A stretch of 64,000 nt of DNA from Myxococcota bacterium (GTDB taxonomy: Bacteria > Myxococcota_A > UBA9160 > SMWR01). Position numbers and translations under genes: made by a program. Location: contig JAKVBI010000022.1 of NCBI GenBank assembly GCA_022447545.1, positions 30,903 to 94,902 of the forward strand. The letters are read 5' to 3'. This document shows, in pieces, positions 1,838 to 41,403 of the stretch. The notes beneath the pieces are model-generated. The model did not search any database, was not told the DNA's origin, and worked only from the letters and a program-made list of their open reading frames with translations. Each line of letters opens with the position of its first letter. The first letter of the stretch is position 1.

Positions 1838-2824
1838 TTAACGCGCATCGGTGGTGCGGATCCCAGCATTGAGACCGGGGCGTGTATCCGAGGCGGAAGC
1901 TTCGATCGCATGGGCAAGGGTCGGTACCACGATGCGTGCCGCTTGGGGGCGGATGCGGACTTCGAGCCTTTGAACATCCCCGCGAAAGTCTCCGTCAATC
2001 TGGTAGGGGAAGGGTCGGTCGGATTCGAGAAGGACCTCGCTGCAGGTTCCGTATTCGGCGATGAAACGAGGCGATCGTGTGCGGAGCATTGCGGCGAAAG
2101 TCTGCCAGCCAACGGCGATGATGCCTGGGCGGGTTCGGGCCTGGAAGTGGAGTTGCCCGCTTTGAAAATGTGCTTCCGGCGCCATGCTCCAGCCCTTGGC
2201 GTAGGTTCGGAAGTTGCACAGAACCGTGGATGCATACCTCGGTTGTGAGGTCGTGCCATCGAGGGTCAGTCGCAGTCGCAGGTGACGGGATTGAAGCGCG
2301 GAGGCAACGCCGGCAGCGAGGTAAAGGCTGTCCCCCCATTGTCGGTACCAGTGAGTGCCCACTGCGCTCGTGCGCAGTCTCGTTACGTAATCGACGGCGC
2401 GGGCGTCGAATCCGACACCCACCATGGCGACACAGGTTTCCCCATTGGCTTCGGCGAGGTCGACGGGTACCGGCGTTCCTCGGAGCAGCGATTCGATCGC
2501 TCGGGCGGGCTGGCGGGGAATTCCGAGCTCTCGTGCCACGACATTGGCATGGCCGACAGGGACGATTCCCAGCTGGAGTTGGTCACTTGCTCGTCCGAAC
2601 CCCTCCAGGGTCTCGCGAATCGTTCCGTCGCCACCCACCACGATCACGTAGTCGATGCTTCCCGGCAGACCGGCCGCTAGCCGTCTGGCTCCATTGGGCT
2701 CGCGGGTGGCACACCGCTCGGTCGTCCAACCGGAGCGCGTCAGTTGGTGCTCTGCGATCGCGGAGATCTCTTCGGCTTCGCCCGAGCCAGAGACGGGGTT
2801 GTAGATGACCAACGCTCGTCTCAC
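1838..2824 (-). CDS. Diacylglycerol kinase / YegS-like lipid kinase
   Basis: IYNPVSG, GGDGT, PVGHANVVARELG and YQIDGD motifs. Confidence 0.88.
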   Translation of the reverse strand: MRRALVIYNPVSGSGEAEEISAIAEHQLTRSGWTTERCATREPNGARRLAAGLPGSIDYVIVVGGDGTIRETLEGFGRASDQLQLGIVPVGHANVVARELGIPRQPARAIESLLRGTPVPVDLAEANGETCVAMVGVGFDARAVDYVTRLRTSAVGTHWYRQWGDSLYLAAGVASALQSRHLRLRLTLDGTTSQPRYASTVLCNFRTYAKGWSMAPEAHFQSGQLHFQARTRPGIIAVGWQTFAAMLRTRSPRFIAEYGTCSEVLLESDRPFPYQIDGDFRGDVQRLEVRIRPQAARIVVPTLAHAIEASASDTRPGLNAGIRTTDAR

Positions 2825-2873: not shown

Positions 2874-4781
2874 TCAGGTTCGCGGTCGACGATTCTCCGC
2901 CAAGGTTCCTGGTGAATCGATGATCCATGCCGAATCAGGCTTGAGGGCCACACTGTCTCCGAGGTACACGAGAAAGAAGTTGCGCTTGGAGTCTCCTGGG
3001 TTGCGTGGAATTTCCACCACCATTCCCTGTCGGCTCCCCTTTTGCCAGAACTCGGCGTCCCTGCCGGGTCCCTGCTTTCGATAGGTCTGGTTCCACGGGG
3101 ATGGGGTGGGGTAGGCCCGTCGATCGACATCGATCGTGAGCCGGGCGTCGTCGGGGTCGAAGCGGACCCGTGAGGCCAGGACCGCCGGGTCGCGAACGCT
3201 TCCCACCAGATACGTCAGGCCCACGACCTCCAGATCGAGTTCGGGTAGGGCAAGATCGACCCAGCCCTGAATTGAATGTTCGAGAAAGATCGGTCGCTCT
3301 CGCAGGTGTTGGCGGCGCTCGGCAACCCAGAAGGGGAAGTTGACGAGATAGACCCGGCTCCCTTCAGGCAGTTCCCGAGCGCTCTCCCGCGTTTGTTCAA
3401 GGGTGCGGCGTGCCACTTCTCCGGCGTGGCGCCATTCGGCCAGGGAGCGGCCGCTCCAGGCGCCCTCGATGATCGACACGGAGACCCCGATGGAGATCAC
3501 TCCCGCTACGGCAGCCGATAGCCAGTCGAGTCCATGCTCTGCAGGGCGCGGAGGCCCTGTACGTTGAGGTGAACGCCATCGGAGGAAAAGGGTCGAGCCG
3601 GCCGAGAGGATCGACCACGCCACGATTTGGCTGAGAAAGATCGATGCGGTGTAGAGGGTTCGGGGAAGTGCGACGGTACGCGTGGCGACGTAGACGAACC
3701 CCAGGGCTCCGAGAGCCAGGCCAGAAAAGTACAGCCTCGCCCGAGCGCCATCCCGGTCCGAGCGGATTCGGTGTGCGAGCCAGGCACAGGACAGAAGCCA
3801 CGCGACGGCCACGGTAAATATGACAGCCTGCGATGTGGTGGCGCAGCGATCGAACCGGCCTGGCCACAACGCGGTGCAGATCGAGACATCCAGGCTGAGA
3901 GCAGCAGTCTCCAAGAAGCCCGCGTGTGAGGCATGTACATAGCCACCCATGCCTCCCAGGATGTTGCTCCTCCAGGCGAGAACCACGGCGATGGCGAGTG
4001 CGGGTGGCCAGGTCCACCGGGCACAGCGTACCAGTCGTGTCCGGACGGGAGCGGGGGACGAAAAGCACCAGACCATACTCGTGGCCATGGCCGGGATCAC
4101 CACTGCCGAGTCCTTGGAGGCGAAGCCCAGGGCTGCGGTGAGTCCACCTGCCAACAGGGCGATCTTGGAGTTGTGGGTGACTGCTCGGTGCGTGGCATGG
4201 AGGGTCAAGAGGGCAAACAGCGCGAACAAGAGGTCGGGGCGCCTGGCCAGAGCTGGGACGGTCTCCATGGTGAGGGGGTGAATGGCAAAGAAGAAGCCAG
4301 CCAGGGTGGCTTCCCAGTCCCCACGACGGATTGGAGGAGAGTTTGGGGACGCTGGGGGAAGAGCCAGGAACAACCGATAGACGAGAAGGGAATTGACCAG
4401 ATGGAGTAGGAGATTGGTGAGGTGAAAGCCAAAGGGTTCCAGTCCCCAGAGGTACCAGTCGAGTCCCCAACTCAAACTCGAGAGCGGGCGGAAGAACAGC
4501 GCATTGGGCATGAGACCCTGCATGAGGGGCGACGACAGTACATTGACGAGTTCAGCGCTGTCTGACACCCGTCCAGTGGAGATGAGGGGGAAGGTGTCGA
4601 CGTCGGTGAAGTAGAAGCCGAGTTGCTCGGAGTAGATCCACGCGCCCGCCAGGGTGATGGCCAGGGTGCCAGCGATGCGGAATCGGGTGCGACTCAACGT
4701 GTCCCCTCGAGTGCCCAGGACTTCTCGGGAGCAGGTTCTGTGGTGAACGTGAGGAGAATCGGGAGTTGGCGGGGATCCCAC
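2874..4781 (-). CDS. Polytopic membrane protein, TMTC/PMT-like GT-C glycosyltransferase without TPRs
   Basis: FFRPLSSLSW, FHLTNLLLHLVNSLLV, HPLTMETV..RPDLL and SKD motifs shared with the TMTC-like genes; C-terminal soluble domain. Start uncertain. Confidence 0.7.
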   Translation of the reverse strand: MGSPPTPDSPHVHHRTCSREVLGTRGDTLSRTRFRIAGTLAITLAGAWIYSEQLGFYFTDVDTFPLISTGRVSDSAELVNVLSSPLMQGLMPNALFFRPLSSLSWGLDWYLWGLEPFGFHLTNLLLHLVNSLLVYRLFLALPPASPNSPPIRRGDWEATLAGFFFAIHPLTMETVPALARRPDLLFALFALLTLHATHRAVTHNSKIALLAGGLTAALGFASKDSAVVIPAMATSMVWCFSSPAPVRTRLVRCARWTWPPALAIAVVLAWRSNILGGMGGYVHASHAGFLETAALSLDVSICTALWPGRFDRCATTSQAVIFTVAVAWLLSCAWLAHRIRSDRDGARARLYFSGLALGALGFVYVATRTVALPRTLYTASIFLSQIVAWSILSAGSTLFLRWRSPQRTGPPRPAEHGLDWLSAAVAGVISIGVSVSIIEGAWSGRSLAEWRHAGEVARRTLEQTRESARELPEGSRVYLVNFPFWVAERRQHLRERPIFLEHSIQGWVDLALPELDLEVVGLTYLVGSVRDPAVLASRVRFDPDDARLTIDVDRRAYPTPSPWNQTYRKQGPGRDAEFWQKGSRQGMVVEIPRNPGDSKRNFFLVYLGDSVALKPDSAWIIDSPGTLAENRRPRT

Positions 4782-4836: not shown

Positions 4837-5832
4837 TCATGGGCGAATCAGGAGTTCGAGGATCGTGCCAAGGCGCCGGCTGTTCCGGGCGAACCCGGGA
4901 TCATCGGAGCGCCCGCTTACGACGAACGATAGGACGTCGACCTGGTCGAGCAGCGAAGTGACGACAGTCAGGTCCTGGGAGGTCTGACAGGAGAAGAAAT
5001 TCTGAACGAGCGTATATCCGGGCTCAGTCGCCACGGGGGGCGTGGTGGTCTTCACCTCGCCGGCACAGTCGGACATGAAGAGTTCCCGTTGGTCCCGGCT
5101 CAGTTCGTCCAGGGAGCGAAGGGCGCGAAGTTCGACGATGGATGCTCCGTGGCTGGTATCGGTTTCCCAGGCGATGGACGAAGCGGGGAGGCCCATCCGG
5201 CCCGGGGGAATGAGGTCGACCTCGCCGAAGCCCGACAGGCGGAGAAGGGTGTAAACCTGCCGCCGGCGAGGCGTCCCTGGTTTGTCGGCCGGGTGCAGTC
5301 GTCGTAGACCCGGAGGGCGTCTCGCGTCGAAGGACGCCGCCAACTCCGCGCAATCGATCAGTTTCTCGACCGAGTTCGCGGTGCCCGGGTTCAAGCGTGC
5401 AGAGACGGCCCGTTGCTCCCCGTTCAGGGAGATCTCTCGAGCGTCACGCAGTGCCATCAGGGCCTCGGTGCTTTCGTCGACGCGGACTCCCCAACTCGAC
5501 AACTGGCTTTCGGACACGGGGTGTTGGCCCATGGGTTCGCCGTCCACGGACAGCTTCAACGCTGCTGAGGTGGGCGGTGGCAGAGTCGAGTTGATGCTGA
5601 GCCCGAGGGCCAGAGGCTTGCGGATCTCGAGTCGCAACGAAGGACCGCGTTCCTGGGTCAGTTGTTCTGCGACACAGCTCGTGGGGCCCATTTCATCCGT
5701 TTCGCCAACGAATCTCAGATTCCATCCGTTGGACCGGTCGTCGTAGAGCGCCGTCGGCTCGGCAACGGCCAACCCGCATAGGCCGGTGGCGGTCATCGCG
5801 GTTGCGTACAGGAGGAGTCGTTTACTCCGCAA
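4837..5832 (-). CDS. Hypothetical secreted protein
   Basis: Signal-peptide-like N-terminus ending AVA-E; start overlaps the cytochrome stop codon region; several Cys. Confidence 0.65.
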   Translation of the reverse strand: MRSKRLLLYATAMTATGLCGLAVAEPTALYDDRSNGWNLRFVGETDEMGPTSCVAEQLTQERGPSLRLEIRKPLALGLSINSTLPPPTSAALKLSVDGEPMGQHPVSESQLSSWGVRVDESTEALMALRDAREISLNGEQRAVSARLNPGTANSVEKLIDCAELAASFDARRPPGLRRLHPADKPGTPRRRQVYTLLRLSGFGEVDLIPPGRMGLPASSIAWETDTSHGASIVELRALRSLDELSRDQRELFMSDCAGEVKTTTPPVATEPGYTLVQNFFSCQTSQDLTVVTSLLDQVDVLSFVVSGRSDDPGFARNSRRLGTILELLIRP

Positions 5833-7822
5833 TTCGGATCTGCCGATCGTCGCGACGTTGGATCACCTCATCGACGGCTTCCCGATCGAGTCCACCATCG
5901 GCTGAGACGAAGAGCGCGGATGAGGCGGGGAGCGGATCGAGGGAGCGGCGTTCGCTCCAGGTGCGGTGAGTCCACTCCCGGGCTTCATTTCGCTTTTCTG
6001 GAGTGTCGACGTAGTCGTAGGAGAGCTCCTCGAAGCCGTCGAGCTTGCCCAATGAGCGGGCAGCGATGTAACGAACTGCGGCGTAGGGATCAACCAGGGC
6101 CTCGGCGAGGAATGGGGCCATCCATTGCTTTCCCGAAGCATCGAGGGCCGGCCCCCAACCCATGTGCCAGGCCACGAGGGCTCGTTGTACTGCGTTTCCG
6201 CGAAGCAACCAGAGAGCGGCCGCAGACCGGGTGGCTTCTTCCTCGCTGGGGAGGGCGGCGACTGGGCGCCCCGTCCACGCTTCCAGGTGTTGCGCGGTCC
6301 AGCCGAGACTGCGGTCGAGGTGGCACAGGTTGCAGGCGTTTGGACGATTCGATTCCAGACTCTCCTCCACCGACGGACTGGCCCCCAGGGTGTGGCTGCG
6401 GATCGCCTTGAAAAGCCCGTAGGTGGTGTGTGGCATGTGACAGTTGGCACATCGGCTGCCGCTGGATTCGGGGTCGTGGCGGGTATGGGCTCGGAGGTCT
6501 TCGCGGTAGGTCTCATGGCACTGGAGGCAGGCTTCGTCGCCCTCGAAGCCACGCGCAAGTTGATCCTCGGGTTCGCTGTCGTGCATGGAATGGCAGGACA
6601 GGCACGTGAGCTGTCCGCCCCGAGCGCATTCCGATTTCAAGATCCCGTTGTAGTCGCGGCCTGACGTGCGGACTTGGCCATCCGACCAGGTGTGGCTTTC
6701 GAAGTAGGACCAACCACTGCTGTAGTCAAATGGGGACATCCAATCGCGCACACTGCGTCCGTGTGGTCGCTCCAGGACGCGGCGGGTCGCCTTCAGGTCG
6801 TCGCCTGGGCGGTATGTGAAGCCACTCTGCCACCACTCTTGGGCTCTTTTCTGGCTCGAAAAGCTGGTGACGCTGTGGCACTGGCCACAGACATCATTGC
6901 TTCGGTCCGTGGACAGTTTCTCGGGGTGCACGATCGTGTCGTCGCCTCGGCCAGTCAGGTGTAGCGCGTAGCGCCGGAGCCCTCCCAGGATTCCTTGATT
7001 CGCCGCAACGTGATCCTGGCCCGGGCCGTGACAGGCCTCGCAGCTGATTCCGAGTTCGCCGACGTGGGTGTCGGTGTGGCCGGTGGTCAGGTCCACCCGG
7101 GGACGCCCCGCCGTGGTATGGCATTTGATGCATTGCTCGTTCCAGATCACCGAGTATTCGTCTTCGGCATCTGGACCCAGGAAGCTGTGTTCGTAGGGGA
7201 TCCAGCGCTCGTCTTCCACCATCCAGGTGAAGGGCAGCAGGTGGAGCCTTCGGTCTTCCCCCGCAGCGATCCAGTAGACCTGCTGGTGGTGGGAGCCGGT
7301 GGCCATGAGAACCCTGACCTCCACCCGTTGGGTTTCGTTGTCACCTCGGAGGACTCGAAAGGGGGTGCGCTCGTTGCTGCCGTACTGGGGGTCGAGCATG
7401 TCGACGTAGAACTGGTCCCCCCTGCGGATCAGGTGGTAGTCGCGATTCCGAATGGTCACGGTTCCGCTCCAATCGGGGATCATGGTTTCGGGACTCACGA
7501 CCTGGGTCATGGTTCGGTGGTGGGTCTCGTACCAACTCTCGTATTCCCGCGGGTGGCAGGAGCGGCAGGCACGCGATGACACGTAGCCCCCCTCGGAATC
7601 CACTCTGGGGCGCTGTGCATTCGCGGGATCATCGGGGCCGCCCGCTCGCTGGGCGCGCGGGTACCAACTCGTGGCGGACGCGGCCAGCAGTAGGCCGGCG
7701 AGCAGGCCGAGACCCACCGCTTGCCAAGATGAGTGATGCCCTCGGCTTTCCCGCTTCACGCGATGGCTCCGAGTCCGCGAAACGTTCTCCGGAGAGTCAT
7801 GGCGATGGGGATGGCTCGGCAT
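5822..7822 (-). CDS. Multiheme (8 CxxCH) c-type cytochrome, N-terminally membrane-anchored
   Basis: CRSCH, CIKCH, CEACH, CGQCH, CLSCH, CLQCH, CANCH, CNLCH; N-terminal hydrophobic helix; C-terminal HEAT-like segment (DPYAAVRYIAARSL). Confidence 0.9.
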   Translation of the reverse strand: MPSHPHRHDSPENVSRTRSHRVKRESRGHHSSWQAVGLGLLAGLLLAASATSWYPRAQRAGGPDDPANAQRPRVDSEGGYVSSRACRSCHPREYESWYETHHRTMTQVVSPETMIPDWSGTVTIRNRDYHLIRRGDQFYVDMLDPQYGSNERTPFRVLRGDNETQRVEVRVLMATGSHHQQVYWIAAGEDRRLHLLPFTWMVEDERWIPYEHSFLGPDAEDEYSVIWNEQCIKCHTTAGRPRVDLTTGHTDTHVGELGISCEACHGPGQDHVAANQGILGGLRRYALHLTGRGDDTIVHPEKLSTDRSNDVCGQCHSVTSFSSQKRAQEWWQSGFTYRPGDDLKATRRVLERPHGRSVRDWMSPFDYSSGWSYFESHTWSDGQVRTSGRDYNGILKSECARGGQLTCLSCHSMHDSEPEDQLARGFEGDEACLQCHETYREDLRAHTRHDPESSGSRCANCHMPHTTYGLFKAIRSHTLGASPSVEESLESNRPNACNLCHLDRSLGWTAQHLEAWTGRPVAALPSEEEATRSAAALWLLRGNAVQRALVAWHMGWGPALDASGKQWMAPFLAEALVDPYAAVRYIAARSLGKLDGFEELSYDYVDTPEKRNEAREWTHRTWSERRSLDPLPASSALFVSADGGLDREAVDEVIQRRDDRQIRIAE

Positions 7823-10468: not shown

Positions 10469-11593
10469 ATGCGCCGACTGCTATTGGAATCGACTTTCAG
10501 GATGTCGTTGACCTTCTCGTGGGTTGGGTCGACCCCACCGTGGGTTCTCGTGGGGCTGATGCCTTGGGTGGCGTTCGCGCTGGCCCTGGGGGGGGCACCG
10601 TTGAGATCCGAGGCGCAGAACCTGGAGGTGTCTAGAGATCCAGGGGTTCGGACCTTTCCGTCCGGGGTCGAATCCACCGGGCCCCGCAGCGCTGAAATAC
10701 GGACGACTTCCGCCTGGCTCGCCCCGCGTTTTCAGCGGAAGATCGAAGAGGCTGAGAAGTGGATCGGTGAACGCCGTTTCGCGCAAGTCGATCGTCTGCT
10801 CGAAGATCTCGAGGGGGGGAGATTGGATGTCTATGAGCGTGTGGCGATCGAGCAGGTGCGTGCGATTTCATTCGTCCATCGGCGCAGGTTGACGGAAGCT
10901 GTCGAGAGTTACCGAAGGGCGCTCGGGTACATCGAGTTGGATCTGGCAACACGCCGGCATCTGAGTTCGAATCTGGGGCAGGTGCTGGTCACAAGCCGAC
11001 GCTTCGTCGAGGCGGTTTCAGTGCTCGAGCCAATCGCTCTCAATGCTCCTTTGGGTGGCGATCCGTCGACTCTTCTGGCCCTCGCTCATGCTTACGCGGG
11101 AACGGATCGAGAGGGCGAAGCGGTTAGAGTTGCGGAGGCGGCCATGGAGTCGTCCGGCGGGGTGGCCCGTGAACCTCTGCGTCTGATCACGGCCATTCAT
11201 CTACAGCGGGCTGATTTGGAACGTGCGTCTGAGACCGCGTCGGAACTCGTGCGACACTTTCCCGACCAGGCGGCCTGGCTTCAACTCGCGGCGATATACG
11301 GCCGCCAGGGAAAACATTCCGAAGCGCTCGCAGCCCTCGACACCGCCTACGAGGAGGGAATGATCACGGAGGAACGTCCGATTCTTTTGCTCGCGCGAAT
11401 GATGCTGGGGCAGAACCCCGCACGAGCTGCGGTGATCCTCGATCAGGCGTTGGTGAAGGGTGCGATTTCTCCCGAGGGAGAAGGCGGGCGTTTGCGGGCT
11501 GAAGCGTGGAAGGCCGCGGGTCGGCCCGAGTTGGCTCTTGGGTCTTCGAGTGGGGACGAGGAATCGGGGCGTCACGCTTCGGGCAGGCCGTGA
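10469..11593 (+). CDS. Periplasmic TPR-repeat protein
   Basis: GGAG SD; N-terminal hydrophobic segment; TPR-like helices (NLGQVLV, WLQLAAIYGRQGKHSEALAAL). Confidence 0.75.
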   Translation: MRRLLLESTFRMSLTFSWVGSTPPWVLVGLMPWVAFALALGGAPLRSEAQNLEVSRDPGVRTFPSGVESTGPRSAEIRTTSAWLAPRFQRKIEEAEKWIGERRFAQVDRLLEDLEGGRLDVYERVAIEQVRAISFVHRRRLTEAVESYRRALGYIELDLATRRHLSSNLGQVLVTSRRFVEAVSVLEPIALNAPLGGDPSTLLALAHAYAGTDREGEAVRVAEAAMESSGGVAREPLRLITAIHLQRADLERASETASELVRHFPDQAAWLQLAAIYGRQGKHSEALAALDTAYEEGMITEERPILLLARMMLGQNPARAAVILDQALVKGAISPEGEGGRLRAEAWKAAGRPELALGSSSGDEESGRHASGRP

Positions 11594-11634: not shown

Positions 11635-12234
11635 TCAACTTGGAAACGCGTCCACTTGCCGGACCTGTTCGTCATCGGCCTCACGCCCAACTCGACGAGC
11701 CCAGTTCACCCACATCGTCACCACGGCCACGATCAGGATTCCTGGCCAGATGACCAGGTGGGCGGTGTGAAAGGTGTCCTCTGAGTATTGGGCACCGATG
11801 ATGTACAGGCTCACGACCCGAATGAAGTTCACTGCCTGGAGCAGTGCGATGTTGGTCAGGATCCCCACGGCCTTGCTACGCCAGGGGGCGGGGAACGCGA
11901 GGATGGCCGAAGCCAGGAGTGTGCAGAGTTGGACGGCATCGCATTCGGGCGCAATGTCGACCATGAAATGACCGTTCCAGATGGATGTCCCGAGTACATC
12001 GACCTCCTGGCCCAAGAGGTTCAGGATTGCGCCGCTGACGATGGCGATGCCCTCCAGGTAGACCTCCAGCATTGGGCTGCCCAGAAGAATGGCGTAGTAG
12101 AACAACTCGCTACTGATCCCGAGGAAGGCGAAGATCAGAGCGAACCGCAACCAGGGGTCCATGCGACGAGGAGGCTCGGCTGCCGTTTCCTGATCGGACC
12201 CAGGGGGCGGGGGATCGGTTTCCGGATTCTTCAA
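11635..12234 (-). CDS. xrtH: Exosortase/archaeosortase-family transpeptidase (exosortase H-like)
   Basis: Cys (DIAPECDAV), Arg (NFIRVVSL) and His (AHLVIW) triad in a small polytopic protein; TTGA overlap with the upstream gene. Confidence 0.8.
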   Translation of the reverse strand: MKNPETDPPPPGSDQETAAEPPRRMDPWLRFALIFAFLGISSELFYYAILLGSPMLEVYLEGIAIVSGAILNLLGQEVDVLGTSIWNGHFMVDIAPECDAVQLCTLLASAILAFPAPWRSKAVGILTNIALLQAVNFIRVVSLYIIGAQYSEDTFHTAHLVIWPGILIVAVVTMWVNWARRVGREADDEQVRQVDAFPS

Positions 12235-13832
12235 GGGGTCCTTCCGGGAACGTTCTCGTCAGAGGCTTCGGGCGGCACGGTCTGGCGGATCTTGGCTGTG
12301 TCGGGATGCGGTATGAAGCGCACGCCATTCACACCCGAATGCAGCAGCCAAAGAGTGTGGTCCGGGAAGTGGTTGGCGATTTCACGGTTTGCATCCTCGC
12401 CGAGATCCAACGCCCAGACCATTCTCGCACCGTCGATGTCAGCATCGTTCCGAGTCCAATCGTATTCGACGTGGTGCCCCTGGGCGTAGTGCGCGAGGGC
12501 CAGGTGGCTCCCGGGATTTGAGAGGGCGATGTCCTCGAGATAATTCTTTTCGTAGGTGGGGCGGAGTTGGAGTTCGATAGAGTGGTCATCATATCGATCC
12601 AGCATGGCATTCCACGACCAGGCGATGAGGCCCGTGATGACGATCAGGCCCAGGGGGACGGGACCTGCTCGGAAACTTCCAATACGCGCCGTAGATGCGA
12701 GGAGCACGACGAGCCCCAGAGGAACGAAAGGTCCCAGGAATTCGGTTCGCTCGAAGGTCTGGGCTGCAAGACCTGCTCCGAACAGGAGGAGCGAGGCGCA
12801 CGCGAAACGGACGTCGGGGTCGCGCATGCACCAGGGGAGACCCAGTAGGAGTAGGAGAAGAGGAAACGGCAACAAGAAATTGCCGTAGAGCTTTGCCTTC
12901 TCCGCGAGTCCGCCCAGGAAGCCCACCAGGTCCTGCCGATCGGTATAGGGTTTTGTGAATCGCGTGTCCTTGGAGTAGAGAATTTCCAGCGAGATGTTGG
13001 GGTAGTCCTTCGCGGGGGGGCGCTCCATGAACAGCAGGTCTGGAACCGACGCGTAGGTTTCGTTGTAGAGCGAACGAGGGGATTGGAGCGGGTCTTCGGT
13101 GGTGCGCCAGTTGAAGTACCCGGTGAAAGTGACCGTCGCGAGGAGCAGGAGGAGCGTGGGTAGAAGCTTGTTGAGAGTGAGCTTGTTCGCGCCAGCCGAC
13201 GGGGGACGAATTCCATCGCGCAAGAGAATCCAGGCGGCGGGGACGCAGGCCAAGAGGCCCTCGTAGGGCCATGACAGCCATAGGATCGCGGCGCCCAGTC
13301 CGAGAACCCAGGCGTGGGCAGAATGGGGCGCCTTGCGAAGGCGGAAGGTGGCGCCGTACACGAGGGCGGCGCCCAGCATGCCCAGGGATGCGCCGGTGTA
13401 GCCAATTCCCCAATCGATGAGGAGATTGGGATGGGTTGTCAACACCATGGACCCCAGGAACGAGTATCCGGCCGAGATTCCTCGGATCGCGCTCAACATC
13501 CACCACACGCTCACACAGGCCAGCGCGAAGGTCAGGATGCTGGCGCGTCCGGGGTCCCCGAGCGCGTTGCCCGCGAGAGCGACCAGGGCCGGCAACGGCG
13601 TGGCAATGGAGACGTACTTGGGTTGGACGAGTTGGTAGGGGCGCTCGAAGTACGTTGGCAGGGCGGGGGGTGGGTTGGCGAGCCGACCGTTGGAAAACGT
13701 GTCGGCGGCGAGTAGTACGCTGAAGTCTTCGAGAGTCGTCGGGCGGGGCTCGATCCAGAGAAAGGCCCAGTAGCAACTCGTGACGGCCATCAGCAGCACG
13801 AGGATCGGTTGTTCGATCCGTAAACGTGTCAC
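12231..13832 (-). CDS. Polytopic membrane protein, putative GT-C (ArnT/PMT-like) glycosyltransferase
   Basis: Acidic first-loop motif LEDFSVLLAADTF..GRLANP; about 10 hydrophobic helices; SWPYEG; C-terminal periplasmic domain. Confidence 0.6.
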   Translation of the reverse strand: MTRLRIEQPILVLLMAVTSCYWAFLWIEPRPTTLEDFSVLLAADTFSNGRLANPPPALPTYFERPYQLVQPKYVSIATPLPALVALAGNALGDPGRASILTFALACVSVWWMLSAIRGISAGYSFLGSMVLTTHPNLLIDWGIGYTGASLGMLGAALVYGATFRLRKAPHSAHAWVLGLGAAILWLSWPYEGLLACVPAAWILLRDGIRPPSAGANKLTLNKLLPTLLLLLATVTFTGYFNWRTTEDPLQSPRSLYNETYASVPDLLFMERPPAKDYPNISLEILYSKDTRFTKPYTDRQDLVGFLGGLAEKAKLYGNFLLPFPLLLLLLGLPWCMRDPDVRFACASLLLFGAGLAAQTFERTEFLGPFVPLGLVVLLASTARIGSFRAGPVPLGLIVITGLIAWSWNAMLDRYDDHSIELQLRPTYEKNYLEDIALSNPGSHLALAHYAQGHHVEYDWTRNDADIDGARMVWALDLGEDANREIANHFPDHTLWLLHSGVNGVRFIPHPDTAKIRQTVPPEASDENVPGRTP

Positions 13833-13886
13833 CGTTCAGAGGTCTCTATCGTGTGGTCGAGTCTCAAAGGGCCAGTTCCGAGTCGA

Positions 13887-13892
13887 ATTATA
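13887..13892 (-). promoter_or_regulatory. Consensus -10 TATAAT upstream of the GT-C/exosortase operon
   Basis: Perfect TATAAT on the minus strand, 54 nt before GTG 13832; no clear -35. Confidence 0.55.
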
Positions 13893-13994
13893 TCCCACCC
13901 ATTCCCGATGGTCCCGGGTTCGTTCCCGCGGCTGGCCTCGGGTGGGTTGGGTGGAAAATCATGAGAAGGCAGCGTGTACGCAACTGCTGGTCGG

Positions 13995-15389
13995 TCAGAA
14001 CTGGAAGTAGATGAATGGCTGCGAGTGAATGGGGTCGAAAGCGAAGGCCAGCCCAAAGAGCACCCCGTAGAGCACCGCGAATCCGACTGCGGGGATCTGC
14101 CTCCATGCGTCCCGGATTGGAAGCTTTTGAGTTGCGATTTGAGCAAGGGCCAATGCCCCAAGGACAAAGAACACGTGGGGATCGGCCGATTGCGAGCCCG
14201 GAGATTCAAACAGCACAAAGCTGCGACAAATCTCGAGTGCTGTGGCGAGGTTTGTTGCCCGAAAGAAGATCCAGGCCACGCAGACCCACCAGAACGTCAA
14301 TGCGAGGCCGAGGATTTCGGGAAGTCTGCCCTCGCCGACATGGCGCTTCCACTCCCGGTGAACGATCAAAGCGAATCCGTGCAGCAAGCCCCAGATCAGA
14401 AAGTTTCCCGAGGCGCCGTGCCACAGTCCCCCCAGCACCATGGTGATGAGGAGGTTGCGATAGGTCGTGAGGCGTGGGCCTCGGCTGCCGCCCAGCGGGA
14501 TGAATAGGTAGTCCCGAAGCCAACTCGACAGGCTGATGTGCCAGTGCCGCCAGAAACTTGCAATGTTGGTGGTCAGGTACGGGGCTCGAAAGTTGGCCCC
14601 CAGCCGATAGCCGAGGAGCCCCGCCGACGCGATGGCCATGTCCGAGTAGCCCGAGAAGTCACAGTAGATCTGCACCGCGTAGGAGAGCGCGGCCAGCCAG
14701 GCTCCCGATGCGTCCCAGGCGGAGGGGTTGGCGAAGTAGGTGTCTACGAAGGGTGAGAGATTGTCGGAGATGCAGGCTTTCTTGACAAACCCGACCAGGA
14801 ACAAAACGAGGCATGCCCGCAGGGGAACGTCGAGAGGGCTTCTCGGGGTCGTGAGTTGGGGGAGAAAGTTGGCGGCTCGTACAATGGGGCCCGCAACGAG
14901 TTGGGGGAAGAAGCCGACGAACAGCGCCAGATCGAGAAAGTCACGGGTTGGACGAAGGGTGCCCCGATGGATGTCGAGGGTGTAACTCATGGATTGGAAG
15001 GTGTAGAAGCTGATGCCCACTGGCAGGACCAGATCGAGGGTCGTGTGGCTGAGGGGGAGCCCGAGCCACCGCCCGAGTTCCACCGCCGATTGGCCGAAGA
15101 AATCGTAGTACTTGAAGATCCCCAGCATGCCGAGATTGACGACAAGGCTCGTGACCAGCCAGGCTCGCTGGGTTCGAGGGGATCGCGCCGTGGCGATGCC
15201 GAGCCCTGCCGCGTAGTCGACCGCTGTCGAGAGCAGGATGAGCGCCAGGAATCGCCAATCCCAGGCCGCGTAGAAGGCGTAGCTCGCGGCGAGTAACCAG
15301 AGCTTTCGCGCTCGAGTTCGCTTGAGGCTCCAGTGGACGGCTAGGACCACAGCCAGGAATAAGAGAAAACGCATTTCGACAAAGAGCAC
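13995..15389 (-). CDS. MBOAT O-acyltransferase (AlgI/PatA-like)
   Basis: LPVGISFYTFQ, FFPQLVAGPI, QIYCDFSGYSD, FWRHWHISLSSWLRDYL and GLWHGA. Confidence 0.95.
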   Translation of the reverse strand: MLFVEMRFLLFLAVVLAVHWSLKRTRARKLWLLAASYAFYAAWDWRFLALILLSTAVDYAAGLGIATARSPRTQRAWLVTSLVVNLGMLGIFKYYDFFGQSAVELGRWLGLPLSHTTLDLVLPVGISFYTFQSMSYTLDIHRGTLRPTRDFLDLALFVGFFPQLVAGPIVRAANFLPQLTTPRSPLDVPLRACLVLFLVGFVKKACISDNLSPFVDTYFANPSAWDASGAWLAALSYAVQIYCDFSGYSDMAIASAGLLGYRLGANFRAPYLTTNIASFWRHWHISLSSWLRDYLFIPLGGSRGPRLTTYRNLLITMVLGGLWHGASGNFLIWGLLHGFALIVHREWKRHVGEGRLPEILGLALTFWWVCVAWIFFRATNLATALEICRSFVLFESPGSQSADPHVFFVLGALALAQIATQKLPIRDAWRQIPAVGFAVLYGVLFGLAFAFDPIHSQPFIYFQF

Positions 15390-16478
15390 CTAGTGGGCTC
15401 CTGTCTTGGTCCGCCGAACGAACATTCGTGCGAGTTGTCTGGAGAAGTGGTGGGCCCCCTGACGGTTGAGATGGGTCCGGTCGGAGAAGTAGCGAGGGTT
15501 CTTGCCGTCGGGGCTCTCCAGGGGATCCTCGAGGTCGAGTAGGGTTCCGGGCAACTGCCCCGACGCGAAAGTCGTGCGGAAGGGTTCGCTCTTGGAAACT
15601 CCAAAAAATGGCATGATCACCCAGGAAATCTCTGCACCATCGGGCACTCCCTCGGCAATGGCTCGGAAACGAGATGTGGCGGCCTTGGGAAGGGGGGATT
15701 TGTCCACCGCCGTGAAGTCGCTCGATACGATGCCTTCTCGCATGCTTTCGATCAGTTTCTGAAAGGCGCCCCTTCGGATCGCAATCTCGTTCGGGTAGGC
15801 GTCCTCGATGGCCACGAACCCCTGGCCCTCGTCGAGGGGGGTTCTCGAAGCAGGAATGGAAGCGGTGGAACGCGCGAGTTCTCCCGCGGCCACGGCATGG
15901 TAAGCGGCTGCGAGGAGATGGTTGGCCATGGACGTCAGTTTGTCGTCGAAATCGAGTCTTGACGAGGCGAGCAGTCGTAGGACCTGAAGGGTGTTGGCCG
16001 AATCGTGAACGGCGACGACACGGGCTGTCGTGACGTTCTCGTAGTCGAGCCAAACACGGGTATTGGGCTCGACGATCACCCAGCGTAATGAGGCTGGGGC
16101 GTCTTTCAGATAAGCCTCGAGAAAGCGCTGCCCATCTGCGAAAGTCAGGCCGGGGATTCCGGCATTGAAGGAGCGGGTGGGTGCGCCGAGGCGTGCGGTT
16201 TCTGCATCGAAGACTCGGGGGTCGATGCCTCGATAGAGCGAACTGGTGCCGAATAGGAGCACGTCGAACTCGGCGGCGTTCTCCTTCCAGAAGGTCAGCT
16301 TGTCGCTCAGTTGCCGCACCTGTGGCAGGGGGCTGCTCTGCTGCACTCCGGAGCGGACCAGACTCGTCGTCGCGAGCAAGCTGGTGACGCAGAGCAGGGC
16401 GTAGAGGCACAACTGCCTTGCAGAGGCACGGGTAGCCCCCTCTCCTTGAGGCGGCAGGGGCTCCGGGGTGCGCGTCAT
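15390..16478 (-). CDS. SGNH-like periplasmic protein (AlgJ/PatB/DltD-like partner of the MBOAT)
   Basis: N-terminal TM; LLFGTSS (block I) and DRTHLN (DxxH); TAG stop directly abuts the MBOAT GTG. Confidence 0.7.
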   Translation of the reverse strand: MTRTPEPLPPQGEGATRASARQLCLYALLCVTSLLATTSLVRSGVQQSSPLPQVRQLSDKLTFWKENAAEFDVLLFGTSSLYRGIDPRVFDAETARLGAPTRSFNAGIPGLTFADGQRFLEAYLKDAPASLRWVIVEPNTRVWLDYENVTTARVVAVHDSANTLQVLRLLASSRLDFDDKLTSMANHLLAAAYHAVAAGELARSTASIPASRTPLDEGQGFVAIEDAYPNEIAIRRGAFQKLIESMREGIVSSDFTAVDKSPLPKAATSRFRAIAEGVPDGAEISWVIMPFFGVSKSEPFRTTFASGQLPGTLLDLEDPLESPDGKNPRYFSDRTHLNRQGAHHFSRQLARMFVRRTKTGAH

Positions 16479-16594
16479 GCGGGGCGCTCGAGCGGCATGG
16501 GACGTGTGATAGGTTAGAAGTCGGTGGGAGGGAAGTCGAATGGCCGCGACGTTGCGGCGCTGTGTGGGGCTGCTACGAATCCTCGCAACGAGCC

Positions 16595-17797
16595 ATGAGG
16601 GACTCCGGAACGCCGTCTTCGATGCAAACGAGTGAATCTGCGGCGATCGAACTGTCGATCGTGATGCCGTGCCTCAATGAGGCAGACACCCTGGAAGTCT
16701 GCATCGAGAAGGCGCAGAGGTCCCTGCGAGAGCTGGGAATCCAGGGCGAGGTCGTTGTTGCCGACAATGGGAGCGACGATGGTTCGCCCGAGATTGCCGA
16801 ACGCTGTGGCGCGCGGGTCGTCCGAGTCGCAGAGCGAGGATACGGGAGCGCTTTGATGGGAGGCATCGAGGCCTCTCGTGGTCGGTACATCCTCATGGGG
16901 GATGCCGATGACAGCTACGATTTTCTCGAAATCGAGGGGTTCGTCGAGAAATTGCGCCAGGGAAATGACCTGGTTCAGGGGTGTCGGTTGCCGGGCGGCG
17001 GAGGTCGAATCGTCTCGGGAGCGATGCCGGTGCTGCATCGATGGTTCGGGAATCCTCTTCTTACGCTCATGGTGCGGTGGATGTTCGGCGCTCCGATTCA
17101 CGACGCCTATTGTGGACTGAGGGCATTCACGAAGAGCCACTACGATCGCCTGGACCAACGGTGTACCGGGATGGAATTCGCGACCGAGATGATCGTGAAG
17201 TCATCGTTGCTGCGCGCGAAGATTGCAGAAGTTCCCATCACCCTGCATCCCGATGGTCGCAGCTCTCATGGCCCTCATCTGCGAACGTTTCGCGACGGCT
17301 GGCGAACGGTCCGATTCTTCCTGATGTATAGCCCGCGATGGCTCTTCCTTTATCCAGGGCTTCTGTTGATCGCATTGGGCGCGTTGGGCTACGCGGTGGC
17401 GCTCCCTGGACTCGAAATCTTCGGTCTGGGCTTCGATGCACACACATTGCTGTTCGCCAGCCTGTTTGTCCTGATGGGTTATCAGTCCGTTCTGTTCGCG
17501 CTGTTGACCAAGACCTTCGCGGTCACAGAAGGCCTGATGCCCGAGGATCCACGTCTCGATCGGTTTTTCGAGATGGCGAAGTTGGAGGCGGGCCTGGTTG
17601 TGGGCCTGGGGGCGTTGTTCTGCGGAGGGGGCCTGTTGGTTGGTGCAGTGGAGCAGTGGAGAGAATCCGGGTTTGGGTCTCTGGACTACGCGCATACCAT
17701 GCGCTGGGTGATTCCAGGGGTGACTTTGGCTGCACTCGGCTTCCAGACGGTTCTCTGGAGCTTCTACGTGAGCATTCTGGGAATGCGACGCCGATGA
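16595..17797 (+). CDS. GT2 glycosyltransferase, polyprenol-phosphate sugar synthase-like, with C-terminal TM helices
   Basis: LSIVMPCLNE, ADNGSDD, MGDADDSYD, GMEFATEM, then hydrophobic helices. Start could be 16562, 16595 or 16622. Confidence 0.9.
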   Translation: MRDSGTPSSMQTSESAAIELSIVMPCLNEADTLEVCIEKAQRSLRELGIQGEVVVADNGSDDGSPEIAERCGARVVRVAERGYGSALMGGIEASRGRYILMGDADDSYDFLEIEGFVEKLRQGNDLVQGCRLPGGGGRIVSGAMPVLHRWFGNPLLTLMVRWMFGAPIHDAYCGLRAFTKSHYDRLDQRCTGMEFATEMIVKSSLLRAKIAEVPITLHPDGRSSHGPHLRTFRDGWRTVRFFLMYSPRWLFLYPGLLLIALGALGYAVALPGLEIFGLGFDAHTLLFASLFVLMGYQSVLFALLTKTFAVTEGLMPEDPRLDRFFEMAKLEAGLVVGLGALFCGGGLLVGAVEQWRESGFGSLDYAHTMRWVIPGVTLAALGFQTVLWSFYVSILGMRRR

Positions 17798-18447
17798 ATT
17801 GGTTTCGCCGTCTCCACGAGCACCACCATAGGACGCGGCGGACTGAAGCATTGACGCGACATCTGAGCCGATTGATCCCACCGGCATCTCGTCTGTTGGA
17901 TGTGGGTTGCGGCGATGGTTTGTTGACGAGTCAACTGGCGGAGCAGTGCGTTGATGTTGCGGTGACCGGGGTGGATGTTCTGATTCGGAAAGATACTCAC
18001 GTTCCGGTGAGCTCTTTCGACGGCGTGTCTCTGCCGTTTTCAGATGGGTCTTTCGATGTGGTGATGATGGTGGATGTCGTCCATCACAGCGACGACCCTT
18101 TTCGGCTGCTCTCCGAGGCGGCGAGGGTCGCCAGCCGCTGCCTCGTTCTGAAGGACCACACTTTGCAGGGTGCGCTGGCGGCACCGACCCTGGCCTACAT
18201 GGATCGATTCTCCAACCTACGTCACGGCGTCGACGTGCCGTGCAACTACTGGACGCCGGAAACCTGGTCCCGCGCGTTCGGCGACCTGCAATTACACGTC
18301 GAAGAATGGGATTCACGGCTCGCTCTCTATCCATGGGGGTCGAGGTGGCTGTTGGAACGTTCGATGCACTTCGTTGCGCGCCTGGGTGTGCGTACAACGG
18401 CAGCGATGCAACTGCCGGACTCCGAGCCATTTGACGCCGCGCTCTGA
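17794..18447 (+). CDS. Class I SAM-dependent methyltransferase
   Basis: LLDVGCGDG and LPFSDGSFDVV..DVVHH; ATG 17794 overlaps the GT2 stop (ATGA). Confidence 0.88.
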   Translation: MNWFRRLHEHHHRTRRTEALTRHLSRLIPPASRLLDVGCGDGLLTSQLAEQCVDVAVTGVDVLIRKDTHVPVSSFDGVSLPFSDGSFDVVMMVDVVHHSDDPFRLLSEAARVASRCLVLKDHTLQGALAAPTLAYMDRFSNLRHGVDVPCNYWTPETWSRAFGDLQLHVEEWDSRLALYPWGSRWLLERSMHFVARLGVRTTAAMQLPDSEPFDAAL

Positions 18448-19765
18448 GTCGAACACGCTGCTCTGTGTCGCTCTAGGTGTCGCGGCGTGGGTTCGCTGGC
18501 TGGCTCTCGAGCAGTTCGCTGGCGCTCATCTGGCGGGTGATGAGACCTACTATGTGCATCTGGCCGAGGCCATTGCCAACGGAGAGGGGCACGATAGCGC
18601 ATGGCGCCCCCCGCTGTATCCGTTGTTTATGGGGTGGGTGATCTCGCTGTGGCCATCGCTGGATGCTGTGCGTTGGGTACAGATTCTGCTCTCGGTCATC
18701 TCGGTGGGTGTTTTGTTCCGCGTTTGCGACCGTCGGTACGGTGCGCGTCCCGCCTTCGTGACCGGACTGGCTGCGGCACTGTGCCCAGCGCTGGTCCACT
18801 ATGGTCATTTCCTTTGGTCCGAGGCTCTGGCAGCGCCCCTGATGGCGGTCTTCGTCTGGTGTGCGGACCGTTTCGATCGCATGGGGCGTGGGCGCGATGC
18901 CTTTGCGTGCGGAGTGGTTCTGGGGTTGCTGGCTCTCACGAAGGAGGTCTGGGTCTACTTCGGTGCAGTGGTTCTGGTCTGGATGGCCTGGCGCCAGCGA
19001 GCCCGAGCGGCCCGAGCCTCCTCGGTCCTCGCTGCTTGTGCGTTGGGTCTGGCCTGCGTGGTTTTGCCGTGGACGGCCCGAAATTATCTCCAGTCCGGGG
19101 GGTTCGTCCTGATCTCCATGAATCGCTGGTTCCCGATCGCCATGGGGAATTTCTATCCCGACGATGATTGGTATCTGGGTAGCTACAGCCATGATCAGCG
19201 TGAAGCCCTGAAGGATCGAGTCGTGTCCATGTCGGGGCCGGAATACGACGCCATGTGGCAAGAGATCGCACTGGAGTTGATTGCCGATCATCAACCCTGG
19301 TGGGCCTTTCAGAAAAGCATACGGGGCGTAGTTGGGCTCTACAACGTTCGCAGTCAGCCACTTCGATTTCTCGAAGAGGGCTGGGTGAAGCCTTCCCCGT
19401 CGGGTGCGGTGACTCTGGTCGTGACTGAGGTCGGTGGCTACTACGTCTTTATGCTGCTTGGAATTGCGGCATTGTGGTTGGTTCCAGGGGGAGGGCTCAA
19501 ACCACTGGTGGTGCTCGCGGTCCTCTACGTGACGGGCGTGCACCTGATCGCGAATGCGACTCCGCGCTTTCATGTTCCGCTGCTGCCGCTCTTCGCGATC
19601 TACATCGGTCCTCTGATGGCGATGGGGCGCGGGGTGGGCGGACTCCCTCGTTGGCAGAGAGTTGGTGCGGCGATCACCCTGGTCGCTTTCGTCCTGATTC
19701 CGTTGCCGCGTTCCTGGTCGGTGATGGTGGACGTCTGGAATGGAATCGGTGGGGGGACGGGCTGA
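18431..19765 (+). CDS. ArnT/PMT-like GT-C glycosyltransferase
   Basis: AGDETYY, WRPPLYPLF, LWSEALA, LALTKE, VLPWTARNY and PRFHVP; TTG 18431 is the inferred start. Confidence 0.78.
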   Translation: MTPRSESNTLLCVALGVAAWVRWLALEQFAGAHLAGDETYYVHLAEAIANGEGHDSAWRPPLYPLFMGWVISLWPSLDAVRWVQILLSVISVGVLFRVCDRRYGARPAFVTGLAAALCPALVHYGHFLWSEALAAPLMAVFVWCADRFDRMGRGRDAFACGVVLGLLALTKEVWVYFGAVVLVWMAWRQRARAARASSVLAACALGLACVVLPWTARNYLQSGGFVLISMNRWFPIAMGNFYPDDDWYLGSYSHDQREALKDRVVSMSGPEYDAMWQEIALELIADHQPWWAFQKSIRGVVGLYNVRSQPLRFLEEGWVKPSPSGAVTLVVTEVGGYYVFMLLGIAALWLVPGGGLKPLVVLAVLYVTGVHLIANATPRFHVPLLPLFAIYIGPLMAMGRGVGGLPRWQRVGAAITLVAFVLIPLPRSWSVMVDVWNGIGGGTG

Positions 19766-19766
19766 G

Positions 19767-21191
19767 GTGAGCTTTCGTCCTCGTCGGAACTCGAGGAATG
19801 GCCCGGGGCGAATTCTTCGGGGCATGTGCTTCTGCCTGGCTGCGACATTCTGGGTGGGTGTGGGGAGTTGGACTGCGTGTCGACCTTCCGCACCCCCCCG
19901 CCCGGACATCATATTGATCTCCCTCGATACGCTGCGGCGCGATGCAGTCGGTGCTCGAACTTCGGACGGTCGGCCGGTGACTCCAAATCTGGACGCGCTG
20001 GCTACCCGCAGTGTTGAATTCACCCGTGCCTACGCACCTGTGCCTTTTACCCTGACGTCCCACATGACACTCTTTACCGGCTTGAGACCGGCGGTTCACG
20101 GGATGGAGGGGCGAGGGGATCGTCTGAACGCGAAGGCGACGACGCTACCTCAGTTCCTCGAGCGAGCGGGTTACGCAACTCTTGGCGTTTCCACCAACGC
20201 GTGGATGAAGGGCGAGTATGGGTTCGATCGCGGATTCGACCACTACGGAGAAATTCCGCCGGGCGATACGTTTGCCGACCGTGCCATCGATCGCGCACTC
20301 GAGTGGGTGGACGAGAGGCCTCCGGACTCCCCGTTGTTTCTTTTTCTGCATCTGCTCGATGCCCACTCGGATTGGCGGAACCTTCCGTACGATTCGCCCG
20401 ATGAGTACCGCGAGGGCCTGGCCGTTGCCGAGACCACCTTTTGCAGTGACGAGGGGGTGTGTGCCACCCGATTCTTGATCGATTCGGATCGCTCCGACAG
20501 GGAGTTCTCGCAGCGAGAGATGGAGATTCTCCACGAGTTGTACCTACGGGGTGTGGCCTACCTCGACGCTGAACTCGGTCGTTTGTTCGCCGCTCTGGAG
20601 CAGCGAGGGATCTTCGAGCAGGCACTGGTGATCGTGACTTCCGATCACGGGGAGGCGTTTCGAGAACATGGCCGGTTTCTCCACGGACAACCCTACGAGG
20701 AGACCCTTGCCATCCCTCTCCTGATCAAGTTGCCCGATGCGGAAGGGGTGAAACCCCGGAGAGTGTCGGCCCTGGTGTCGAACGAGGATTTGCTGCCCAC
20801 GGTGCTCGAATATCTCGAAGTGACGATCCCTGATGACCTCCAGGGCCGGAGCATGGTTCCTCTCTTGCGGGGGGAAGATGGCGCGCGTGACGTGGTGGTG
20901 GGGGGGGATGCCGTCCATCGCCGTCGTGCCATCGCGGACGATCGGTATCGCCTGGTCGTCGGGTTGGAAGATTCCCGGGTTGAATTGTTCGACCTGAAGC
21001 GGGACCCCCAGGGAGGGGCAGCATCGCGTGTGGAACGGCCGGAGAGGGTGAGGGCACTTCGGTCTCGGCTCGACGAACAAGTTCTCAGAGACACGGAACT
21101 CGCCCGCGAGTACGCGCCGATCCGAGATGGTGAAAGCGTTCTCGACGGTGACGACGAGCGTTGGCTTCGAAGCCTGGGGTACCTGGACTGA
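19767..21191 (+). CDS. Alkaline-phosphatase-superfamily ('sulfatase-like') lipoprotein, Thr-type
   Basis: Lipobox-like WTAC; LDTLRRD, FTLTSHMTLFTG and TSDHGE; C-terminal LRSLGYL. GTG 19767 follows the upstream stop. Confidence 0.85.
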   Translation: MSFRPRRNSRNGPGRILRGMCFCLAATFWVGVGSWTACRPSAPPRPDIILISLDTLRRDAVGARTSDGRPVTPNLDALATRSVEFTRAYAPVPFTLTSHMTLFTGLRPAVHGMEGRGDRLNAKATTLPQFLERAGYATLGVSTNAWMKGEYGFDRGFDHYGEIPPGDTFADRAIDRALEWVDERPPDSPLFLFLHLLDAHSDWRNLPYDSPDEYREGLAVAETTFCSDEGVCATRFLIDSDRSDREFSQREMEILHELYLRGVAYLDAELGRLFAALEQRGIFEQALVIVTSDHGEAFREHGRFLHGQPYEETLAIPLLIKLPDAEGVKPRRVSALVSNEDLLPTVLEYLEVTIPDDLQGRSMVPLLRGEDGARDVVVGGDAVHRRRAIADDRYRLVVGLEDSRVELFDLKRDPQGGAASRVERPERVRALRSRLDEQVLRDTELAREYAPIRDGESVLDGDDERWLRSLGYLD

Positions 21192-31230: not shown

Positions 31231-31273
31231 CGTTGGAGGTCCTGCGCTGAGGAGTCGATCCTGCGATCTCGGA

Positions 31274-31279
31274 TATACT
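31274..31279 (+). promoter_or_regulatory. -10 element TATACT in the divergent gap between the TMTC paralogues
   Basis: TATACT 49 nt before ATG 31329, in a 98-bp intergenic region. Confidence 0.5.
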
Positions 31280-41390: not shown

Positions 41391-41395
41391 ACACT
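41390..41395 (+). promoter_or_regulatory. -10 element TACACT, 8 nt before ATG 41404
   Basis: TACACT-cgaccgcc-ATG; no SD. Confidence 0.35.
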
Positions 41396-41403
41396 CGACC
41401 GCC

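Follow-up and report, generated by a model that had tools for sequence, protein, structure and literature searches.

An XrtH-like exosortase abutting a GT-C-fold glycosyltransferase in a marine Myxococcota envelope locus: a pairing not conserved among available relatives

We studied a stretch of 64,000 nt assigned to a Myxococcota bacterium (contig JAKVBI010000022.1 of assembly GCA_022447545.1, positions 30,903 to 94,902; this whole stretch is called the window), in which a gene for a small exosortase follows directly upon a gene for a 533-aa membrane protein with a predicted GT-C glycosyltransferase fold, both on the minus strand (Table 1). An earlier note on this DNA had proposed that the pairing links surface anchoring with glycosylation, the acceptors of the local transferases being exosortase-anchored proteins encoded elsewhere. 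The reading that we prefer, with a probability of roughly 0.6, is that the two genes form the tail of an envelope operon, in which the exosortase has a PEP-CTERM-type substrate encoded outside the window and is a general passenger, not a dedicated partner of the GT-C enzyme.

The direct pairing was not found again in any relative. Starting from the GT-C gene, we searched 83 related loci, together 1.54 Mb and reaching up to 10 kb to either side of each, by tblastn and by applying an exosortase hidden Markov model to the open reading frames (ORFs) of all six frames, and no exosortase was found within 10 kb in any of them (0/83). Starting from the exosortase, we obtained nine independent loci carrying members of the same exosortase clade by scanning metagenomes and looking up contigs; the gene directly upstream of the exosortase was a sulfatase-family protein of about 980 aa, an LptF/G permease or an unrelated gene, and never a GT-C gene (0/9). 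As far as gene order can tell, direct abutment of the two genes is specific to the lineage of the window among the available relatives, and since the earlier note had itself named a pairing unique to this genome as the outcome that would speak against its proposal, the proposal is not upheld. The lack of conservation of the direct pairing therefore points to ordinary operon membership and not to a dedicated anchoring-plus-glycosylation machine.

The relatives also suggest how the abutment may have come about. In locus L090 an MBOAT gene is followed by a GT-C gene (39% identical to that of the window), a 979-aa sulfatase-superfamily membrane protein and the exosortase, beyond which lies a convergent 314-aa gene. 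In L088 and L091 the exosortase comes directly after the C-terminus of the same 979-aa family (40% identity), and the locus with the closest GT-C homologue (42%), L001, keeps the arrangement of a 339-aa protein, MBOAT, GT-C and a divergent GT2, with the N-terminus of the 979-aa family after the GT-C gene and then the end of the contig. On the simplest reading of these gene orders, the window would simply be without the gene of about 980 aa that separates GT-C and exosortase in L090. No orthologue of that gene was present among the genes called in the window, the uncalled stretches being left unsearched, and the 864-aa sulfatase-family protein of the window was rejected as an orthologue of the 979-aa protein of L090 by comparison. 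Because the relatives have either the gene of about 980 aa in between or LptF/G upstream, the exosortase is best seen as a general passenger of outer-envelope biogenesis loci; judged by its neighbours, the clade sits at the ends of operons of this kind, containing Lpt, sulfatase-like, GT-C or MBOAT genes.

If the two genes did work as a pair, the acceptors of this GT-C enzyme and of the other transferases of the island would be surface proteins that are sorted by the exosortase and encoded elsewhere. The tight overlap of start and stop codons with a Shine-Dalgarno-like site (see below) would fit this, as would the presence of GT-C and exosortase in one operon in L090 and of a PMT-family GT-C and a GT2 beside the exosortase and its partner gene in L097/L098; moreover, PEP-CTERM proteins are often rich in Ser and Thr and are found in polysaccharide loci. 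The same concept, a sortase-family transpeptidase and a GT-C enzyme acting on one surface protein, is realised in archaea, where ArtA and the GT-C oligosaccharyltransferase AglB (itself one of the enzymes that the 533-aa protein matches in structure) both act on the Haloferax S-layer glycoprotein, whereas in the window no shared substrate is shown and the adjacency is not conserved. Against such a pair stand the counts given above for both sides, and the PEP-CTERM proteins found near related exosortases in L099 and L103 are without a Ser/Thr-rich linker. Furthermore, the 64-kb window holds at least six GT-C genes (at least five of the PMT_2 type and that of the 533-aa protein), so that any gene of the island is likely to have a GT-C neighbour and the adjacency is likely due to chance. 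Our analysis therefore leaves the functional pair as an unlikely explanation, though a likelier one than the two alternatives discussed below.

Both protein identifications of the earlier note held up. The exosortase scores above the cutoffs of TIGR04178 (53.4 bits, cutoff 23) and PF09721 (34.8 bits, cutoff 25.7), its catalytic residues Cys98, Arg139 and His159 are invariant in both exosortase alignments, all residues invariant in the clade are intact in it, and its ORF has strong coding statistics, with a G+C content of third codon positions (GC3) of 0.76. The protein is an exosortase with an intact triad. A search of PDB sequences with its profile gave no match.

The 533-aa protein matches neither Pfam (E<=0.01) nor NCBIfam, and a search of PDB sequences with the profile of its family also gave no match. 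Its AlphaFold2 (AF2) model (mean predicted local distance difference test score 89.6, predicted template-modelling score 0.90) has at least 12 helices and a small alpha/beta C-terminal domain. When this model was compared with PDB by Foldseek, all of the 31 top matches were GT-C enzymes, with a probability of 0.96-1.00 and template-modelling scores of about 0.3-0.54, and noise came thereafter; they include AftD, STT3/OST, AglB, PglB, ALG12, EmbA/B/C, AftA, Pmt1-2 and DPY19. The protein differs from STT3, AglB and PglB in being without their large C-terminal periplasmic domain. In the model, helix 7-26, the first transmembrane helix (TM1), is followed by LEDFSVLLAADTFSNGRLANPP, which holds the acidic pair E34-D35 (HDE in the family) and D44-T45. 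Across 43 aligned sequences D35 is nearly invariant and D44 invariant, and D44-T45 is called invariant in the family. The prediction thus supports a GT-C fold with an acidic motif in the first loop.

Which substrates are to be expected depends on the class of the exosortase. As suggested in the earlier note, it was scored against XrtH; TIGR04177 (XrtH) is indeed its best-scoring curated model, and the score of 88.6 bits lies only marginally above the cutoff of 86, whereas canonical XrtH proteins (P0069, P0071) reach 207-215 bits on this model. The window exosortase and nine relatives, 41-61% identical, obtain 69-99 bits, with 5 of the 10 falling below the cutoff. In the canonical XrtH locus (L084) the gene after the exosortase encodes the XrtH-associated membrane protein (NF041730/PF28117, 157 bits), which no other locus has; it is absent beside the window exosortase, where no gene of the same strand follows. 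Because of these lower scores and the lack of the associated protein, we set the clade apart as a separate one next to XrtH, and an XrtH/IPTL assignment of the window protein is doubtful. The likeness lies in size, both being small exosortases (about 160-200 aa), and in the Cys/Arg/His signature; the difference is that canonical XrtH, the enzyme of IPTLxxWG-CTERM proteins, has XrtH_assoc next to it, whereas two relatives from the window clade adjoin PEP-CTERM and not IPTL proteins. IPTL-CTERM is therefore probably the wrong substrate expectation here, since the clade straddles the XrtH cutoff, is without the XrtH-associated protein and has two relatives adjoining PEP-CTERM proteins. An index of 5.8 billion proteins yielded about 35 members of the clade, one of them annotated from a Myxococcota metagenome-assembled genome, and a literature search returned nothing specific on XrtH.

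The PEP-CTERM neighbours are found in L099 and L103. In each of them a convergent gene, two genes from the exosortase, encodes a secreted protein of about 220 aa; that of L099 (218 aa) ends in VPEP, a transmembrane segment and RARRRT, and scores 20.9 bits on TIGR02595 (cutoff 16), and that of L103 ends in APEP, a transmembrane segment and RVRR. For the window, the earlier note had stated that no protein carries a sorting signal, and this stands: a six-frame scan for a C-terminal motif followed by a transmembrane segment and a basic tail, which also took in IPTL, PEP, PGF and similar motifs close to stop codons, gave no credible candidate, and degenerate DNA patterns gave no VPEP codon string in any frame of the window and no match there to LRIRFD, a motif of the PEP-CTERM neighbour in the clade. 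TerB and ParA/HTH_25 genes lie beyond the convergent PEP-CTERM protein in L099 and L103.

In L092, L094, L099 and L103 the exosortase stands between an LptF/G permease gene and a gene for a membrane protein of about 200 aa. This partner is a family of its own, unrelated to XrtH_assoc (no profile match, and no significance in hhalign). In the Myxococcota loci L097/L098 the exosortase and its partner lie beside a convergent downstream PMT-family GT-C, a GT2, LptC and a gene with an LptD_N domain. We also note that the LptF/G-exosortase-partner module is better conserved than GT-C adjacency. In L092 and L094 the region downstream of the exosortase contains antisense ORFs; these have no similarity to the 314-aa or Omp85 protein of the window and are probably spurious. 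In L095/L096 and L105 the partner is accompanied by a convergent membrane protein with a HELLH motif; this conserved protein of about 260 aa (L095:9208-9987 and L105:5352-6134, both on the minus strand) occupies the place of the PEP-CTERM protein and, from its motif, is possibly a metalloprotease.

These neighbours suggest a different explanation, in which the exosortase attaches a PEP-CTERM protein to a lipopolysaccharide-type glycolipid built or decorated by the GT-C, sulfatase-like and MBOAT enzymes, the glycolipid being extracted from the inner membrane by the LptF/G-type permease. It would account for LptF/G directly upstream of the exosortase in four loci, for the LptC and LptD_N genes within 4 kb in L097, for the sulfatase-superfamily genes (of the phosphoethanolamine-transferase/lipoteichoic-acid-synthase fold type) adjoining in L088, L090, L091 and L095, and for the convergent Omp85 gene of the window, L088 and L089. 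However, its basis is gene neighbourhood, LptF/G may be a housekeeping copy or a paralogue, no Lpt gene lies beside the window exosortase, and none of the exosortase families has, to our knowledge, an established acceptor. We regard it as quite unlikely. If it were true, the coupling of GT-C and exosortase would reflect one aspect of a pathway that anchors proteins to a glycolipid, and the acceptor of exosortase transpeptidation would at last be identified.

The two genes overlap by the sequence TTGA, as the earlier note had read it, in which a TTG start of the exosortase shares nucleotides with the TGA stop of the GT-C gene. We favour this start over ATG 12162 because of the Shine-Dalgarno-like GGAAGGA 4 nt before it, because relatives have N-terminal extensions and because 5 of 7 relatives have Ile or Leu at the alignment position of Met25. 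In L088 and L091, for instance, the first start codon of the exosortase ORF lies 4-5 nt past the upstream stop, and the proteins have a Pro-rich extension of about 25 aa opening with M-x-S-P. The region upstream of ATG 12162 reads CCTCCTCGTCGC and contains nothing resembling a Shine-Dalgarno site. From the sequence, the exosortase is most likely translated from the TTG overlapping the GT-C stop, and translational coupling of the two genes is likely.

On the opposite view, the exosortase could be a relic, or an orphan whose genome encodes no substrate for it; it would start at the internal ATG and be uncoupled from the GT-C gene. The ATG start of the public gene calls would agree with this, as would the lack of a substrate, partner or XrtH_assoc gene in the window. 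What makes it the least probable of the explanations considered, and very unlikely in our estimate, is the intact triad together with all clade-invariant residues, the strong coding statistics, the Shine-Dalgarno-like site before TTG and not before ATG, and the N-terminal extension common to the relatives.

Returning to the reading as the tail of an envelope operon, the locus would belong to an operon for the modification of envelope glycoconjugates in a marine Gram-negative bacterium not yet cultured. The divergent GT2 would make a polyprenyl-phosphate sugar, and MBOAT together with the 362-aa protein encoded upstream of it would O-acylate a periplasmic glycan. The GT-C enzyme, expressed from an internal -10-like element, would move a lipid-linked sugar to a periplasmic acceptor, and the exosortase, as the last cistron, would cleave the PEP-CTERM-type C-terminal signal of one or few secreted proteins whose genes lie beyond the window. 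The coupled translation with GT-C would then reflect co-expression in an operon for envelope remodelling; it would not mean that the two enzymes share a substrate.

Several observations weigh against this reading. The substrate search covered the 64-kb window, and no substrate is shown for this genome. The window and its nearest relatives (L088-L091) are without both the partner of about 200 aa and the PEP-CTERM neighbour of the more distant clade members, so that PEP-CTERM specificity, which we expect for the window exosortase, is extrapolated across 41-50% identity. The public gene calls start the exosortase at ATG 12162, giving a protein of 175 aa (P0066) and a gap of 69 nt to GT-C. In the three metatranscriptome runs listed, which were included only for sharing a study with locus-bearing DNA runs, none of the words of the locus was present. 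Finally, a looser linkage to GT-C does recur, in the window, in L090 (where GT-C lies upstream in the same operon with one gene in between) and in L097.

The expression of the GT-C gene may involve a promoter of its own, as the earlier note had supposed from a TATAAT. This sequence is present (positions 13887-13892) within GGGATATAAT, and GGGATATA[AC]T is the sole conserved block when the stretches between MBOAT and GT-C are aligned for the window (a gap of 162 nt), L001 and L090; however, the single TATAAT of the window compares with 1.3 copies expected by chance, so that the count is not above chance, and no -35 element was detected with it. From this conservation, GGGATATA[AC]T is probably the -10 element of this lineage, and its role upstream of GT-C as an internal promoter is plausible. 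Other occurrences were noted at about 5970-5980 in L001 and about 466-476 in L090, 35-60 nt upstream of start codons, and in L001 a GGGTATACT (about 7674-7682) stands before the following gene. A near-copy of GGGATATA[AC]T stands in the window at 31270-31279 on the plus strand, about 50 nt upstream of another gene.

The family of the 533-aa protein is large and unannotated, with the sharp signature HDEFSYLLxADTFxxGRLANPPHP and no curated Pfam or NCBIfam model. An exhaustive profile search returned 10,253 representatives of 50%-identity clusters at E<=1e-3 and 4,062 at 1e-30, and all 65 homologues from a word index are named 'hypothetical', none of them with a Pfam domain (0/65). At least 558 loci of the family were found in a scan of GTDB species representatives, mostly in Terriglobia/Acidobacteriota and some in Verrucomicrobiota, Planctomycetota and 'Deltaproteobacteria', the best GT-C identity among the scanned representatives, which did not include the species of the window, being 33%. 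A family of more than 10,000 cluster representatives, mostly from Acidobacteriota and without a curated model, is a lead in itself.

Membership of the 533-aa protein in the PMT_2/ArnT-like family (PF13231) was considered and rejected, as neither it nor its homologues match Pfam and the comparison of its family with a PMT_2 paralogue by hhalign was not significant (E=0.066). With ArnT/PMT_2 enzymes (GT83/GT39-like) it has in common the GT-C fold with many transmembrane helices, the acidic pair and aromatic residue opening the first periplasmic loop (the HDEFSY of the family, which we take to be comparable to the DExxY motif of the ArnT type), a neighbouring polyprenyl-phosphate GT2 and several PMT_2 paralogues in the same island. 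It differs in having no significant sequence match to them, its own ADTFxxGRLANPP signature and the small alpha/beta C-terminal domain. A polyprenyl-phosphate-linked donor for the 533-aa enzyme is hinted at by the AglJ/ArnC-like GT2 of the window and L001.

Exosortases are widespread, and what accepts their cargo and how they are linked to polysaccharide loci are questions for biochemistry. The present locus does not answer them, since GT-C adjacency is not conserved, and what it holds is an ordinary exosortase in a polysaccharide locus. Work of Haft and colleagues from 2006 is said to have placed XrtA/EpsH with PEP-CTERM proteins in exopolysaccharide loci, and the window resembles this system in that a Gram-negative bacterium has an exosortase among the many glycosyltransferases of an envelope polysaccharide locus, and in the PEP-CTERM substrates of clade relatives. 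It differs in that XrtA is a protein of about 500 aa with many substrates and with PrsT/PrsK/PrsR and EpsI-type genes, whereas the window enzyme is minimal; the PrsT-like signal of the window is a single weak TPR match (33.8 bits, cutoff 312). A further lead is the compact XrtH-like clade recurrently found after LptF/G and accompanied in L099 and L103 by one PEP-CTERM protein close by; such a module would make a simple one-enzyme, one-substrate system for exosortase chemistry.

Table 1. Position of the features discussed in the text (window coordinates unless a locus is named)
Feature	Position	Strand	Remarks
XrtH-like exosortase, 199 aa (TTG) or 175 aa (ATG 12162)	11635-12234	-	TIGR04178, PF09721, TIGR04177
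Catalytic codon Cys98	11941-11943	-	codon confirmed in sequence
Catalytic codon Arg139	11818-11820	-	codon confirmed in sequence
Catalytic codon His159	11758-11760	-	codon confirmed in sequence
TTGA, exosortase start overlapping GT-C stop	12231-12234	-	read in sequence
Shine-Dalgarno-like GGAAGGA	12239-12245	-	read in sequence
GT-C-fold glycosyltransferase (predicted), 533 aa, GTG start	12231-13832	-	AF2 and Foldseek; public gene call P0001 equal in length
Family signature, first periplasmic loop after TM1	13671-13736	-	LEDFSVLLAADTFSNGRLANPP
-10-like element GGGATATAAT	13887-13896	-	contains TATAAT; 55 nt upstream of GT-C start
MBOAT-family membrane O-acyltransferase	13995-15389	-	PF03062, 113.6 bits; synteny kept in L001 and L090
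362-aa protein, unknown family	15390-16478	-	directly upstream of MBOAT; 339-aa gene at same position in L001
GT2 with C-terminal transmembrane region, AglJ/ArnC-like (polyprenyl-phosphate sugar synthase type)	16562-17797	+	divergent; PF00535, 79.7 bits
TPR gene	10469-11593	+	converges on the minus-strand gene string
Sulfatase-superfamily gene of about 980 aa in relatives	L090:2076-5015; L091:20-1201; L088:18-899; L001:7693-8325		
LptF/G-exosortase-partner module	L099:1-2811; L103:3251-6247; L092:72-2210; L094:2295-5579		
Five PMT_2-type GT-C genes	2874-4781; 18170-19765; 38422-40131; 46896-48755; 57056-58834		
Four large transmembrane and TPR proteins	25417-27555; 29023-31230; 31329-33257; 44899-46845		
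Second of two MBOATs (first at 13995-15389)	62983 to window end		
Large membrane proteins without Pfam match	34126-35601; 41272-43365; 43334-44902		

On the minus strand the gene order is the 362-aa protein, MBOAT, GT-C and exosortase. The 362-aa protein has no match in Pfam, NCBIfam or PDB and, from its position, is probably a partner of MBOAT. The divergent GT2 scores 113 bits on TIGR04182, which is under the cutoff of that model, and its counterpart at the orthologous position in L001 has PF00535 and GT2_TM_C; it is the likely source of the lipid-linked donor for the GT-C enzymes. Beyond the TPR gene lie a 314-aa protein and an Omp85-family gene.

The window has a G+C content of 63.6%, and the sequencing runs containing the locus are marine or seawater metagenomes. 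Near-identical fragments of the locus occur in two other metagenome assemblies. L086 and L087 are one SNP (single-nucleotide polymorphism) apart from the window and hence provide neither independent evidence nor a signal of selection. For the gene at the edge of the window (1838-2824), all contigs retrieved were 3.7-3.9 kb long and belonged to the same population. A 747-nt ENA contig encodes P0068, a 212-aa IMPDH/CBS-domain protein with a run of 43 residues identical to the window exosortase (KAVGILTNIALLQAVNFIRVVSLYIIGAQYSEDTFHTAHLVIW), and this is most likely an assembly chimera.

As a whole, the window (1-64000) is an envelope-modification island. Besides the genes of Table 1 it carries at least four sulfatase-family genes, a DegT aminotransferase, a GMC oxidoreductase and an LPG-synthase-like protein. 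Three of the sulfatase-family genes, at 19740-21191 (+), 35405-36937 (+) and 36944 to about 38400 (-), have a common extreme C-terminal tail (...LRSLGYLD*, ...LRELGYLRP* and ...LRELGYLE*), which is not a sorting signal of the transmembrane type; tails of the LRxLGYL type might serve for recognition, for example by the TPR proteins of the island. Just outside the glycan genes, a 666-aa multihaem cytochrome at 5822-7822 (-), with paired CXXCH motifs and c554/MtrC-like domains, adjoins the Omp85-family gene.

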